From Candidatus Thorarchaeota archaeon (GTDB lineage Archaea; Asgardarchaeota; Thorarchaeia; Thorarchaeales; Thorarchaeaceae): 15,574 nucleotides of DNA. A program made the translations under genes and the position numbers. Location: NCBI GenBank assembly GCA_048882045.1, contig JBHLRZ010000031.1, positions 1 to 15,574 on the forward strand, given 5' to 3'. Below, piece after piece: positions 1 through 15,574 of this stretch. Below the pieces are notes generated by a model that was given only the letters and a program-made list of their open reading frames with translations, searched no databases and was not told where the DNA came from. Position 1 is the first letter of the stretch, and each line of letters begins with the position of its first letter.

Positions 1-68
1 CTCATATCAACCACATCGCAGTTATCATTTGCACTTACATCGAGGGAGAAAAGGGTTTTCCACGTCAT
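1..68 (-). CDS. 5' end of a probable YjbQ-family (secondary thiamine-phosphate synthase-like) protein; runs off the window edge
   Basis: ATG at 68-66 on the minus strand opens MTWKTLFSLDVSANDNCDVVDM. This resembles the typical YjbQ N-terminus (..T.g.c.iiDiT). Only 22 codons are visible. Confidence 0.45.
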   Translation of the reverse strand, partial: MTWKTLFSLDVSANDNCDVVDM

Positions 69-78
69 GACGACAGAG

Positions 79-86
79 TTATAAAA
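79..86 (+). promoter_or_regulatory. TATA box (TTATAAAA) for the 126..650 gene, in a divergent intergenic region
   Basis: Matches the archaeal TATA consensus, ~40 nt upstream of ATG 126. A GGTGA RBS lies at 116-120. Confidence 0.55.
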
Positions 87-125
87 CAAACACAGAGTGA
101 CGCTCTGAGTGCGACGGTGAATCTG

Positions 126-650
126 ATGGTAAACAAGGAAAAGACACTGAAGCGAGAACTGACCAGGCTCCGGAAGACCCAGAATCCTCAACAGCTCGAT
201 TTTAGAAGAATGAGGAAGGTCAGCACCGCCAAAGCCAAACTCAAGAGGCTCAAGAGAAGACCAGTCGCAATTGCACCTGAGGCTCCTAGAAAGAAGAAGA
301 CCAAGCTAGAGAAGGCAAAGAAGCCAAAGAAAGAGAAGAAGCCTGAGCTTGAGTTAGTCGATGATGAGGCCGAACTAGAGTTCATGGATGAGCTTGATGA
401 GATTGAAGAAGAGCTCATTGCTGAACGAGAAGCAGAAAAAGAGAAGGCTAAGGCTGAAAAGAAGAAAAAGAAGAAAGAGAAAGAGCCTGAGCTAGAAGTC
501 ATTGAAGAGGAAGAACCCAAGAAGAAGGAAAAGGAGCCGGAGCTTGAGGTCATTGAAGAGGAAGAACCAGAATTAGAAGAGATTGTTGAAGATCTGGACC
601 TTGAAGACCTCTACTCCTATGATGAAGACATTGACGAAGAGGATGTCTAA
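126..650 (+). CDS. Hypothetical low-complexity protein with a basic N-terminus and a Lys/Glu-rich, very acidic C-terminus
   Basis: Open frame. GGTGA at 116-120 favours ATG 126 over GTG 117. The coding strand is purine-rich, and the antisense frame reads as a poly-Ser/Phe shadow. Confidence 0.8.
   Translation: MVNKEKTLKRELTRLRKTQNPQQLDFRRMRKVSTAKAKLKRLKRRPVAIAPEAPRKKKTKLEKAKKPKKEKKPELELVDDEAELEFMDELDEIEEELIAEREAEKEKAKAEKKKKKKEKEPELEVIEEEEPKKKEKEPELEVIEEEEPELEEIVEDLDLEDLYSYDEDIDEEDV
468..569 (+). repeat. In-frame 51-nt tandem duplication encoding KKKEKEPELEVIEEEEP twice
   Basis: 468-518 and 519-569 encode identical 17-aa peptides but differ at several synonymous positions. Partial copies (KKEKKPELELV, PELEEI) flank them. 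Confidence 0.85.
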
Positions 651-3245: not shown

Positions 3246-3830
3246 CTACCTGGCGGCTCCTATGAGTAATTTCAGAATAGGAACACGAGCGTATCCTTTT
3301 CTATTGAGGTCTATTATCGGCTTACGGGTTTCAATCTTGATGAATCGCCCAGCTTCGGATGTCTTGTAGTGTTTCAGGTAGATTCTGGAGAATTCAGTGA
3401 ATGTCGCTGCCGCAAGGAGGTCACTTACAGAGTCGTTTGAGATTCTTATATGAGCGTCTTCATCAGTAGCTTTCCCAACCTTTGTTTCAATGTTTCCAAG
3501 GGCAGCCTTTCCTATCCAGAATCTCTCACCCATTGCCATGAATTCAAGGGTGAACTCGTGGGTCCCTTCAAGTCCATCAGCCATCTTCTCGTCATTCAAC
3601 ATGTACACAAGACGATCTTGGATGGAGTCGTGATAGGGTATGATATCACCTCTACCCTCAGGTATGGGTTCAGCAACCTCACTAGCAGCGGGCTCTTCTT
3701 CAGCTACCTCTGCAGGCTCAGCTTCTACTGCAGGTTCAACAGCTGGTTCTTCTACAGCTGGAGCTTCTTCTTCTGGTTTCGCTTCAGTTTTTTCTTCGTC
3801 TTTCTTTTTTCGTCGGAAGAATCGTGACAT
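3246..3830 (-). CDS. Hypothetical protein: basic/aromatic N-terminal tip, acidic Pro/Ala/Glu linker, C-terminal SCP2 (sterol carrier protein-2)-like domain
   Basis: ATG 3830 follows an AGGAG RBS, which favours it over TTG 3857. The segment 'ERFWI..G.IETKVGKATDEDAHIRIS..SV.DLL' resembles the SCP2 beta-hairpin/'pDv.i.ms' pattern. Confidence 0.6.
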   Translation of the reverse strand: MSRFFRRKKKDEEKTEAKPEEEAPAVEEPAVEPAVEAEPAEVAEEEPAASEVAEPIPEGRGDIIPYHDSIQDRLVYMLNDEKMADGLEGTHEFTLEFMAMGERFWIGKAALGNIETKVGKATDEDAHIRISNDSVSDLLAAATFTEFSRIYLKHYKTSEAGRFIKIETRKPIIDLNRKGYARVPILKLLIGAAR

Positions 3831-3894
3831 ATCGAGTTCGCTCCTAGTCGAGAGCAATACTTGTCCCTGTCTTGCTCATGAGTTGGAGTGAATC

Positions 3895-12091: not shown

Positions 12092-12220
12092 CTAATGCTT
12101 CAACACCTGTGAGGAACTGTACGCGGATGATTTTGGAGACTATTTAGCGCTTTGGCTGTGTGAAATGGGCAATTGCAAATCCTTTTGTACGATTTGGATG
12201 AATCAATTCTTGAAATTGCA

Positions 12221-12454
12221 ATGAAGATACTCGAAAGACTTCTCGATGTTTTTGGCAGACGCCGTCAGCTACTTCTAGGTGCTAAGTCTCAACCAAACGA
12301 TCTAATGGCACTGGTTCGAGCAGTCCGTGCAAATGCATACTTCAAGATAACAGGAAAGAGATTGCCGGTTCAAGAATTACCAACTGGTAGTAGTATAGAT
12401 GACATGACGAGAGACCTCTCTCCATCTAGACGACTTGCGCGGAGAGATCTATAG
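12221..12454 (+). CDS. Small basic hypothetical protein
   Basis: Fills the gap between ABCE1 and the next gene. Start is ATG 12221 or TTG 12173. No recognisable motif. Confidence 0.55.
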   Translation: MKILERLLDVFGRRRQLLLGAKSQPNDLMALVRAVRANAYFKITGKRLPVQELPTGSSIDDMTRDLSPSRRLARRDL

Positions 12455-12487: not shown

Positions 12488-13147
12488 ATGTTAGTTCTCA
12501 GGGGATTGAAGATTCCGAATAGAGGATTGATTGTTGTCATCTGTCTGCTCATCTCATGTGCGATTATAGTCCCATGGTTCTTTCCCCAGGTATCGAATGA
12601 TGACAAAATAGGTTGGCTAACTCTGACGTACAGTGTAAGCGAGCAAGTGTACCTTAATGGTTCACAAATTCGATCCACAGAACGGACGGACGAAATGGCA
12701 TTTGTTACTTCTAGGAACAACATGGAGAAAATGTTGGGTCCGCAATATTACTATGAATATCCGCTTGTTATGAATGTGAGTTCTTGGGAGATTAATGATG
12801 GGGTGGAATTAAGGAACAGAAATGGCGGAACAGTAATGTCAGTAATAGTGACAGAAACAAGTGTCGAGGGATATGATTGTTGGGTGTGCGAGATTGGTCT
12901 GAATAATGCTCTCTTCTATGACGAGATTACTGGACTCCTAGTTATGGTAAACCTGACAATAATGCAGACAGATTCTGTCCTCTATGAAACGCTCATAGTA
13001 GCTCAGCTCGTAGAAGCAAATTACGAAATACCAGGAGAAGGTTATCCCACTCAGGAAAGTCTGTTTCTGGCCGGAATTTTCATTGAGATGGCGATCGTTG
13101 TGTGGTTTGTTCCAAACTATATGAGAAAGAAACAGCATCAACCTTAA
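12488..13147 (+). CDS. Membrane-anchored extracytoplasmic protein (N- and C-terminal TM helices), paralog A
   Basis: Hydrophobic termini around a beta-rich core with the motif GYDCW...FYDEITGLLV. Carries N-x-S/T sequons. Confidence 0.8.
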   Translation: MLVLRGLKIPNRGLIVVICLLISCAIIVPWFFPQVSNDDKIGWLTLTYSVSEQVYLNGSQIRSTERTDEMAFVTSRNNMEKMLGPQYYYEYPLVMNVSSWEINDGVELRNRNGGTVMSVIVTETSVEGYDCWVCEIGLNNALFYDEITGLLVMVNLTIMQTDSVLYETLIVAQLVEANYEIPGEGYPTQESLFLAGIFIEMAIVVWFVPNYMRKKQHQP

Positions 13148-13169: not shown

Positions 13170-13808
13170 GTGGGGATTGAGATTTCAAGAAGAGTAGTCG
13201 GATTAATAGTTGGAATTCTCCTGATTGTTTCAGTGAGTAGTCCTTTCATCTTCTTTAGTCACTACCCTGATTACGACAACGTGATAGAACTTACTCTGAA
13301 ATATAGCCATCAAGAAGCGAACTATTCGTCGGACGATGGATGGAATACTTTGGTAGACGAAACAATTGTCCGGACTTATTTCACAAGTCTGAACAACATG
13401 AGTAGGATATTGAGCAACGAAACCATTGCGGGATATCCACTCATAACTGATGTGAGTGACTGGAGAATTGGATTCAGTGTCAATATACGAGGACATACTG
13501 GTTATGTCGACTCAGACATGCAAGATAGTGGTCACAACTGTTGGATAGTTTCGATTGATGATTACAACAGTGTCTATTATGACAAAGATTGGGGATTACT
13601 TGTTGAGAAGAGGTATTCGAGAGTGGTATACTTTGGAAGTGTGTTTGATATAGAGAGAGAAATTATCGAATATACTCTCACTGATTCAAACCTAGAAGAT
13701 TTTGGTTCCTACTACATATCGCTTGATGGCTGGTTGTTCTCAGGGATACTTGTGCAGATTGTAGTGGTTATCGGATTTGTCTATGATCGGCGTTATGGTG
13801 AAGTGTGA
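13170..13808 (+). CDS. Membrane-anchored extracytoplasmic protein (N- and C-terminal TM helices), paralog B
   Basis: Same architecture as paralog A, with GHNCW...YYDKDWGLLV. Colinear motifs are shared with 12488..13147. Confidence 0.8.
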   Translation: MGIEISRRVVGLIVGILLIVSVSSPFIFFSHYPDYDNVIELTLKYSHQEANYSSDDGWNTLVDETIVRTYFTSLNNMSRILSNETIAGYPLITDVSDWRIGFSVNIRGHTGYVDSDMQDSGHNCWIVSIDDYNSVYYDKDWGLLVEKRYSRVVYFGSVFDIEREIIEYTLTDSNLEDFGSYYISLDGWLFSGILVQIVVVIGFVYDRRYGEV

Positions 13809-13850
13809 GGTTTCGAAAGCATATTATGTCTCCAGCTCAATACATCTCCT

Positions 13851-13926
13851 GTCGGGATGATGAAGAAGCATGGATGGCGAGCGAATTCATCAGCGCGATG
13901 AACCTCTAAACCGCAGTCTGACCGAT
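13851..13926 (+). ncRNA. Box C/D 2'-O-methylation guide sRNA
   Basis: C box ATGATGA (13857-63) and D box CTGA (13918-21). Terminal stem TCGG(13852-55)/CCGA(13922-25) gives exact k-turn geometry. C'-like GCGATGA (13895-901) and D'-like GCGA (13877-80). TATA-like ATATTAT lies ~25-30 nt upstream. The element is intergenic. Confidence 0.78.
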
Positions 13927-13955
13927 GCGCCATTCTGGCAGGAGAACCTGATACT

Positions 13956-14372
13956 TTGAGCCCATTTGTCTGCAACCACGACGGATCATGTAAGGAGGTC
14001 CGTCTGTGTTGTACTGAAACAGAGATGACCCTGACCCGTGAGGATGCCGAAAGGATTGAGGCTCTTGGTTATGATAGGGACGTTTTTCTAGTGAAAGTGA
14101 AGGATGGCTTCTGTGAACTGAAAAATGTGGACGGTTTCTGTTATTTCTACGATATTGAATCAAAGAAGTGCAGAATCTATGAGCATCGTCCGGAGGGGTG
14201 CAAGTATTATCCAATCATTTATGATTCGAGAAGAAAGAAGTGCATCATAGATAGAGACTGCCCTTCTGGTGAAACCGAAACTAGGGAGGAGGTCCGTAAA
14301 GTGTGTCATAAGGTCAGGAAGCTTGTCGAAACTCTCATTCAGGAGGCAGCACATGGTGAGAGCCCGTGCTGA
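13956..14372 (+). CDS. YkgJ-family (CxxCxxCC-like) cysteine-cluster protein
   Basis: CC..tem.LT.eD..RI, G.C.FyD..sk.C.IYE.RP..C..YP and a distal CP. TTG start with an AGGAG RBS. Confidence 0.9.
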   Translation: MSPFVCNHDGSCKEVRLCCTETEMTLTREDAERIEALGYDRDVFLVKVKDGFCELKNVDGFCYFYDIESKKCRIYEHRPEGCKYYPIIYDSRRKKCIIDRDCPSGETETREEVRKVCHKVRKLVETLIQEAAHGESPC

Positions 14373-15192
14373 TCTCCACACTCACTCCTCAGGATCAGAT
14401 GGGAGTGATTCACCATCTGAGATAGCCAGAAAAGCAGACAAGATGGGACTCGGTGGAATTGCTCTCACAGACCATGACTCACTCGATGGTATTAAGGAGT
14501 TCATGGAAGCGGATGTGTCTGATGAGATCACACGAGTTCCTGGGTTAGAGATCAGTGCGGAGTATAACGACAAAGAGGTCCACATCCTCGGATACTTCGT
14601 GCCTTTGAACTCAAAGCCTCTCAATGAAAGCCTACAAAGCCTCAGACAGGCAAGGCATGACCGGCTTCCCAAGATGATGAAGAAGTTGAACGACTTAGGT
14701 GTCGATGTCACACTAGAGCAGTTATATGACACACTCGAAGGAGTAGCAAGTCCAGGTCGACCCCATGTTGCAAAATTACTAGTTGAGAAAGGATATGTCA
14801 AAACATTCCGAGAGGCTTTCGAGAAGTATCTTGCGGCAAACAGACCTGCATACGTAAAGAAAGAAAGAATGGAAGTTCGTGAAGCAGTGAGGTTATTCAA
14901 GAGAGTTGGAGCAGCCCCAGTCCTAGCGCACCCTCTCACTATCAAAGTACCCGACCTACGACCTGTTATTGAAGAACTGATGGATGAAGGTCTTGTGGGT
15001 GTAGAGGTCAAGTATGACTATGGTCATATAGTCATGAGATTCCCAGACATAGATGTGGAGGAAACAATCAAAGATCTGGATTTAGTTAAGACTGGTGGTA
15101 GTGACTATCACGGACCAATACATTACACAGAACTTGGTAGCATAACTGTCCCTGTTGAGATCATTGATGAACTTAGGAGGAGAACGAATTGA
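14353..15192 (+). CDS. PHP-domain phosphoesterase (TrpH/YciV-like)
   Basis: DLHTHS..SDG, ALTDHD, GLEIS, VHILGY, GRPH.A, LAHP and GGSDYHG motifs. AGGAGG RBS at 14341-46 places the start at ATG 14353. Confidence 0.95.
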   Translation: MVRARADLHTHSSGSDGSDSPSEIARKADKMGLGGIALTDHDSLDGIKEFMEADVSDEITRVPGLEISAEYNDKEVHILGYFVPLNSKPLNESLQSLRQARHDRLPKMMKKLNDLGVDVTLEQLYDTLEGVASPGRPHVAKLLVEKGYVKTFREAFEKYLAANRPAYVKKERMEVREAVRLFKRVGAAPVLAHPLTIKVPDLRPVIEELMDEGLVGVEVKYDYGHIVMRFPDIDVEETIKDLDLVKTGGSDYHGPIHYTELGSITVPVEIIDELRRRTN

Positions 15193-15574
15193 AAGTTATA
15201 GACGTACATACCCATACTTGGACTCAGGACATAGTTAGCCAAAAAGATTTGGAGGCTAGAAGAGTAGCTGCTGCTAGGTTGGGTGTTGAACCGAGACTGG
15301 AGTCGCGAATCGAACATCTACAGGAGAAGATGAAAGATGGCGGTGTGGAGCGAGCTGTTGTTCTTCCGATAGACAGTGGTCTGAGTAAGAATGTACCAAT
15401 CTCTCTTTCTGAGAAGACTGACCATCATGTGAATGAGGTGAAGGACATCCCAAATATCTCAACCTTCGTCGGGATTGATCCTAGAAGAGGTGAGGTTGGG
15501 CTGCGAGAACTGGAGCGTGCAGTGAAAGAGAAGGGCTGTCTAGGGTGGAAGATGTATCCACCCCAAGGATTCTA
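15189..15574 (+). CDS. Amidohydrolase_2-family metal-dependent hydrolase, 5' part; runs off the window and is absent from the ORF track
   Basis: TTG start overlaps the PHP stop codon (TTGA), with AGGAGG at 15175-80. Translates as MKVIDVHTH...GVERAVVLP...FVGIDPRR...ELERAVKEKGCLGWKMYPPQGF. Confidence 0.9.
   Translation, partial: MKVIDVHTHTWTQDIVSQKDLEARRVAAARLGVEPRLESRIEHLQEKMKDGGVERAVVLPIDSGLSKNVPISLSEKTDHHVNEVKDIPNISTFVGIDPRRGEVGLRELERAVKEKGCLGWKMYPPQGF

Follow-up and report, generated by a model that had tools for sequence, protein, structure and literature searches.

The window analysed here is a stretch of 15,574 nucleotides, positions 1-15574 of contig C31 of a 3.6-Mb MAG that is 93% complete. 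Sequence comparison of the YkgJ-family gene near its 3′ end placed the nearest relatives in Ca. Thorarchaeota. The gap in front of this gene holds the element described below (Table 1), and the element's own (+) strand contains no long ORF. An Rfam search returned no matching family, the best score being 23.8 bits against a gathering score of 40, and in the literature searched we found no paper on C/D guide RNAs of Asgard archaea. The earlier note had read the site as an unannotated box C/D guide sRNA. Boxes, stem, homologues and covariation all agree with this reading, and on the sequence evidence the case for a genuine, conserved and uncatalogued Thorarchaeota box C/D guide, belonging to an already known kind of RNA, is well supported.

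On the 5′ side the sRNA is preceded by tandem paralogous membrane proteins (12488-13147 and 13170-13808), which share 30% identity and match nothing in Pfam. The sRNA of several relatives instead directly follows a gene whose end resembles ORF 12173-12454; the tandem pair therefore looks like a lineage-specific insertion. On the 3′ side, ykgJ is followed by a gene (14353-15192) for a PHP-family protein that resembles both RNase AM/Rnm and nucleoside bisphosphate phosphatases, scoring below both NCBIfam cut-offs. A role of this protein in trimming of rRNA or of the sRNA heading its operon would be speculation. The next gene, amidohydrolase-like (15189-15574 onward), enters a scaffold N gap, after which about 23 codons are repeated; we regard the repeat as an assembly artefact. 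Elsewhere in the window, 3246-3857 (-) and 3-650 (+) encode acidic proteins of low complexity that match neither Pfam nor NCBIfam.

Table 1. Features of the sRNA locus (window coordinates)
Feature	Position	Strand	Remarks
BRE/TATA-like promoter (GAAAG, then ATATTAT)	13815-13827	+	From sequence; ~24 nt before the RNA; putative function
Box C/D sRNA	13851-13926	+	In the gap between the end of the membrane-protein gene (13808) and the start of the YkgJ-family gene (13956)
Terminal stem I, 5′ strand	13851-13855	+	Pairs with 13922-13926; two-sided changes in 4/5 pairs
Box C, ATGATGA (consensus)	13857-13863	+	Found in every homologue
D′ spacer/guide	13864-13876	+	Pairs with 16S 1378-1390; G13872 (D′+5) faces C1382
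Box D′, GCGA	13877-13880	+	GUGA in most relatives; A at 1n in 46/48; G·A/A·G tandem with C′
Internal K-turn stem I	13881-13883 with 13894-13896	+	3 bp, 95% paired; closes a 10-nt loop, 13884-13893
Box C′, ATGAACC (working register)	13898-13904	+	Bulge 13897-13899
D spacer/guide	13905-13917	+	13907-13916 pairs with 16S 949-958; G13913 (D+5) faces C952
Box D, CTGA, and 3′ strand of terminal stem	13918-13926 (CTGA 13918-13921)	+	Invariant in alignment A1
RBS (AGGAG, 13940-13944) and YkgJ-family CxxCxxCC gene (13956-14372)	13940-14372	+	PF03692; outside the sRNA

Boxes C and D were said in the earlier note to be closed by a TCGG/CCGA stem with a 3-nt bulge, and every one of these elements is in its place. 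TCGG (13852-13855) pairs with CCGA (13922-13925), the stem is extended by G13851·U13926, and the bulge is GAT (13856-13858), so that the terminal boxes form a K-turn with stem I. Measured from box C through box D, the RNA is 65 nt long, or 76 nt with the stems, at or slightly above the range of about 50-70 nt given for archaeal C/D sRNAs (PMC7994747). In alignment A1 the boxes and the D guide are invariant and the flanks variable. A strict rule that demands consensus boxes, a 4-bp stem and nine nucleotides of rRNA match yields 0.002 occurrences per Markov-resampled window, and applied to the 3.6-Mb genome it finds this site alone. Thus, the element is not a product of chance. Taken together, the terminal and internal stems show two-sided changes in six of eight pairs, more than in any of 500 shuffles or any slid control; such counts are inflated by relatedness, but the changes nevertheless recur in several genera.

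A covariance model detected one strong copy each (E<1e-12) in 59 of 86 Thorarchaeaceae genomes from 11 of 16 genera, that is, in 58 genomes besides the source genome. We based the homologue count on these model matches and not on the bare D-guide pattern, whose count of 64/85 contains chance matches. The model found no sRNA in the other Asgard genomes searched; its best match outside the family (E=0.0014) falls in an apparent coding region and was rejected as a homologue. A pattern search of 301 genomes of the phylum was consistent with this distribution, and the matches in 2 of 224 genomes outside the family lack the family's sRNA layout. Conservation of boxes and guides upstream of ykgJ in relatives, a check proposed in the earlier note, was borne out at 26 of the 30 closest loci, where the sRNA sits between divergent flanks. 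The gene was not found in five of the 16 genera, and two genomes of the source genus (G013 and G001) retain just a decayed remnant upstream of ykgJ. As a separate observation, the 16S of G013 and G046, which have no detectable sRNA copy, carries base changes in the D-guide target, and other genomes without the sRNA gene have no such changes. The 16S binned with G039 is strongly unlike other 16S of the family around 950-1030 and may be mis-binned.

The internal part of the RNA required more revision. Degenerate D′ and C′ boxes, as described previously, are indeed present, but the register of C′ had to be corrected: the RUGAUGA look-alike at 13895-13901 was rejected in favor of a working C′ three bases further 3′. 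This placement, which also rules out a bulge-less stem, makes both spacers 13 nt long. In this register, L2 is a purine (48/48), L3 is U (46/48) and 1b is G (48/48), and 5b-5n is paired in 39 of 48 copies, compared with 26 in shuffles (0/2000). The internal stem II has C and G exchanged with respect to the consensus boxes, and its changes are compensatory, with four pairs changed in one copy; the first pair of the internal stem I is G-C in 17, A-U in 15 and G-U in 13. Judged by its sequence, the internal D′/C′ motif is therefore a full K-turn with a covarying stem, not a K-loop. The extended D′-C′ insert to which the unusual length had been attributed does exist as a region, yet it consists of the 3-bp stem I of this K-turn and a conserved 10-nt loop. 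Since internal K-turns are already known in archaea (PMC8413462), this feature alone is not new. It is also not confined to one family: a second Thorarchaeal sRNA family, present in 40 genomes, has the same design with a GC/GC stem and variable loops (UUCG, GAAA). Strict motif scans had suggested that the sRNA was the only C/D sRNA of its genome. This was refuted by three further ones, on contigs C33 (~14720-14800) and C45 (~21880-21950 and 22005-22080), which those scans missed and which have degenerate C boxes and stem-closed internal K-turns.

Neither 16S nor 23S rRNA of the source MAG itself is assembled; targets were read from the 16S of same-genus and same-family genomes, plus a contig from a mixed sample. 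The latter comes from sequencing run X1, which contains 95% of the sampled words from window positions 13200-14400; no RNA run was listed among the sequencing runs containing this DNA. Its 513-nt Thor-type 16S contig, whose link to the source MAG is not certain, has seven differences from the reference, none of them in either target or in the helix-33a loop. The E. coli 16S record that we used for numbering is 6 nt shorter than the standard, and positions were corrected by +6, a correction that rests on what we take to be the standard positions.

The D guide, TAAACCGCAG (13907-13916), contains a core, AAACCGCA, that is invariant in alignment A1. As the earlier note proposed on the basis of the D+5 rule, it aims at 16S position 952: G13913 faces C919 of the reference 16S, which aligns to E. 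coli 952 in helix 30. The rRNA sequence assumed there, CUGCGG, did not stand, because every Thorarchaeaceae 16S examined has UUGCGG at the site. Taken literally, this is the finding that the earlier note had named as refuting its reading, yet the target at C952 survives. Most homologues carry a matching A at D+2, giving a perfect 10-nt match with 10 Watson-Crick (WC) pairs, and the source copy, like a minority of others, has G there and forms G·U instead (9 WC pairs and 1 GU with the same-genus 16S). None of the 49 distinct copies departs from the D+5 pair or the register at C952. Partners of lower energy, tRNA-Thr and 23S 2705, were rejected, because their pairing either fails to be Watson-Crick at D+5 (G·U or mismatch) or is interrupted beside the box.

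The D′ guide had previously been left without an assignable target. We found one in 16S 1378-1390, where C1382 lies opposite D′+5; among 16S, 23S and the tRNAs of the genome this is the best duplex (11 WC, 1 GU, 1 mismatch). When tested on same-genus 16S, both D+5 and D′+5 positions form WC pairs. In the source copy, U13871 makes a U·C mismatch at D′+6; in most relatives the pairing runs through without interruption. The D′ arm is under looser constraint than the D arm: most copies target 1382, others are set to 1381 or 1383, and about six have a decayed guide. Both guides fit letters specific to the family, U949 and U1388, where most other Asgard 16S examined have C. In the 16S of three genomes (G030, G013 and G050), a hairpin of 30 nt is inserted after E. 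coli position 1386. It is probably an intron; it splits the D′ target and would have to be removed for complete pairing. The 30-nt insert of G035 sits a little further upstream.

The proteins needed for such an RNA are encoded in the source genome: the fibrillarin and Nop5 genes adjoin on contig C2, and L7Ae lies on C11 (42604-42975). L7Ae, Nop5 and fibrillarin are thus likely to assemble on the sRNA and 2′-O-methylate C952 in helix 30, as far as sequence comparison allows prediction. The same modification is predicted for C1382 in most of the family, but it is doubtful, at slightly below even odds, for the source organism, where the mismatch adjoins the target. In the 30S head, both nucleotides are presumably close to tRNA contacts. 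Position 952 does not come up in the papers that we consulted on modified archaeal ribosomes. PMC4644070 lists no sRNA for either site in any of its seven archaea; the family thus predicts two 16S modifications, Cm952 and Cm1382, that are not listed for those organisms.

Taken together, these observations favor, with a probability of about 0.85, a stand-alone archaeal box C/D double-guide sRNA of ~76 nt. Sequence and comparison directly show two K-turns, a pair of 13-nt spacers, and guides complementary to 16S 949-958 and 1378-1390. Transcription would start at the sRNA's own promoter at the head of a ykgJ-PHP-amidohydrolase operon, and the transcript would probably be trimmed to the part protected by protein. 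L7Ae, Nop5 and fibrillarin would then assemble and methylate C952 and, in the majority of the family, also C1382. Most homologues are likewise preceded by an AT-rich box at a comparable distance, no terminator-like site was found between sRNA and ykgJ, and the two are probably co-transcribed; processing from an operon leader would follow known archaeal cases (PMC7994747). A sigma-70 promoter scan is inapplicable to archaea. The sRNA might also hold both 16S strands during pre-16S folding, since its targets are 430 nt apart, yet both at the base of the 30S head; a folding role has been proposed for Nanoarchaeum sR15 and sR17 (PMC4644070).

Two alternatives shift the weight elsewhere. In one, the sRNA is mainly a folding chaperone of the 30S head and methylation is incidental, above all at the D′ site. 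That site does move by one base between lineages while pairing is kept, and long-range double guides at helices 28 and 30 have been proposed as chaperones (PMC4644070). However, the D+5 pair and register at C952 are invariant, and entire genera apparently live without the sRNA gene, which makes this an improbable primary role. In the other, the element is a cis-acting, L7Ae-binding K-turn in the 5′ leader of the ykgJ operon that regulates its expression. Its position between promoter and RBS, with no terminator-like site, fits such a role, as does its adjacency to ykgJ in 40 of the 41 relatives in which both were located, and regulation by L7Ae through mRNA K-turns is reported (PMC5539422). 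Nevertheless, a leader K-turn leaves two conserved, rRNA-complementary and family-fitted guides unexplained, the RBS starts 18 nt past box D, and in one genome (G042) the sRNA lies 5 kb from ykgJ on the opposite strand, showing that it can be independent of the operon. We consider this possibility very remote. The double-guide sRNA remains the reading that we adopt.

The conserved 10-nt D′-C′ loop, with pyrimidines before its AUCA core, may add a further function to the double guide. Our tentative proposal, somewhat less likely to be right than wrong, is that the loop acts as an extra base-pairing element on the 16S helix-33a loop (~1013-1016) and boosts methylation directed by the D guide, a function with a precedent in the D′-C′ loop of yeast snR70 (PMC3116282). 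Within 16S plus 23S (4.6 kb), the loop 7-mer has a single exact complement, in the helix-33a loop, which is also the best site by WC pairs across 26 loop variants. It lies 61 nt from C952 in the 3′ direction, the one in which strand geometry would place the partner of an arm located 5′ to the D guide. The loop is intact in most copies with a decayed D′ guide, the equivalent loop of another Thorarchaeal sRNA family varies freely, and an A-to-G change in the loop of genus g4 matches a U-to-C change in the helix-33a loop of G030 16S. On the other hand, the duplex has just 6-7 bp, and by energy helix 33a ranks first for the source copy but lower or not at all for most others. The pairing is interrupted in G015, the g4 loop occurs in G054 with its 16S unchanged, and known extra elements adjoin their targets. 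Once G·U is allowed, 16S 408-416 scores above helix 33a; in genus g2 an A·C mismatch disrupts that pairing, which may hold in other genera. Moreover, the loop is complementary to the sRNA's own boxes, and its conservation might instead reflect a switch formed in the absence of protein, in which it pairs with box C or C′. The protein-free MFE structure does pair the loop with box C, and 80-82% of the cells pair when the loop is set against the own boxes. Yet covariation with C′ does not exceed shuffles (300/500 equally high), the test against the invariant box C is uninformative, and the base after the core is U, which fits box C, in one of 26 variants and G, which fits rRNA, in 11. We consider the switch unlikely.

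More speculatively, the Thorarchaeal C/D RNPs could be intermediate between archaeal and eukaryotic ones, with a Snu13-type L7Ae that may recognize stem-closed K-turns alone, guides built with internal K-turns to match, and a freed D′-C′ loop that in this family serves as a third rRNA arm on helix 33a; we give this idea rather low odds. In the literature searched, no paper was found that describes a third rRNA-pairing D′-C′ arm in an archaeon. Loop 9 of the L7Ae encoded in the source genome reads I-E-R-P, compared with I/L-E-V in Thermococcales and V-S-R-P in yeast Snu13. The Snu13-type Arg-Pro is present in 47 of 47 Thorarchaeaceae proteins, whereas the Arg occurs in only four of 23 L7Ae proteins from other Asgard families. 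The inability of Snu13 to bind K-loops has been attributed to loop 9, but no single decisive residue was found for K-loop binding (PMC8413462), so that no claim about binding follows from the Arg; its coincidence with internal K-turns is a correlation within one clade. The two eukaryote-like details, loop pairing and the Snu13-like residue, are thus unproven; if true, they would bear on when eukaryotic snoRNP features arose. The sRNA itself is confined to one Asgard family and consequently gives no pointer to an ancestral eukaryotic site.

Among catalogued RNAs, the archaeal sR and SNORD families of Rfam share the box motifs, although no score comes near any gathering threshold. The closest archaeal counterparts are Nanoarchaeum equitans sR15 (helix 30) and sR17 (helix 28) and Pyrobaculum calidifontis sR56 (PMC4644070, Table 3). 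They have the same C/D′/C′/D layout, follow the same N+5 rule and likewise address two 16S targets that are distant in sequence and lie at the base of the head domain. They target other nucleotides, however, and the corresponding alignment positions, C935 and C1369, are not among the predicted sites (PMC4644070). The Thorarchaeal sRNA also exceeds them in length and has a conserved loop closed by an internal K-turn stem; the likeness seen is one of layout. Closer to home, the Thorarchaeal sRNAs on C33 and C45 share the stem-closed internal K-turn, but their loops are short and variable. In the arrangement of D′, stem, conserved loop, stem and C′, and in the complementarity of the loop to rRNA, the sRNA resembles the snR70-type snoRNAs of yeast (PMC3116282), in which the pairing lies beside the target and has been shown to raise methylation, whereas the candidate Thorarchaeal pairing would lie 61 nt away.
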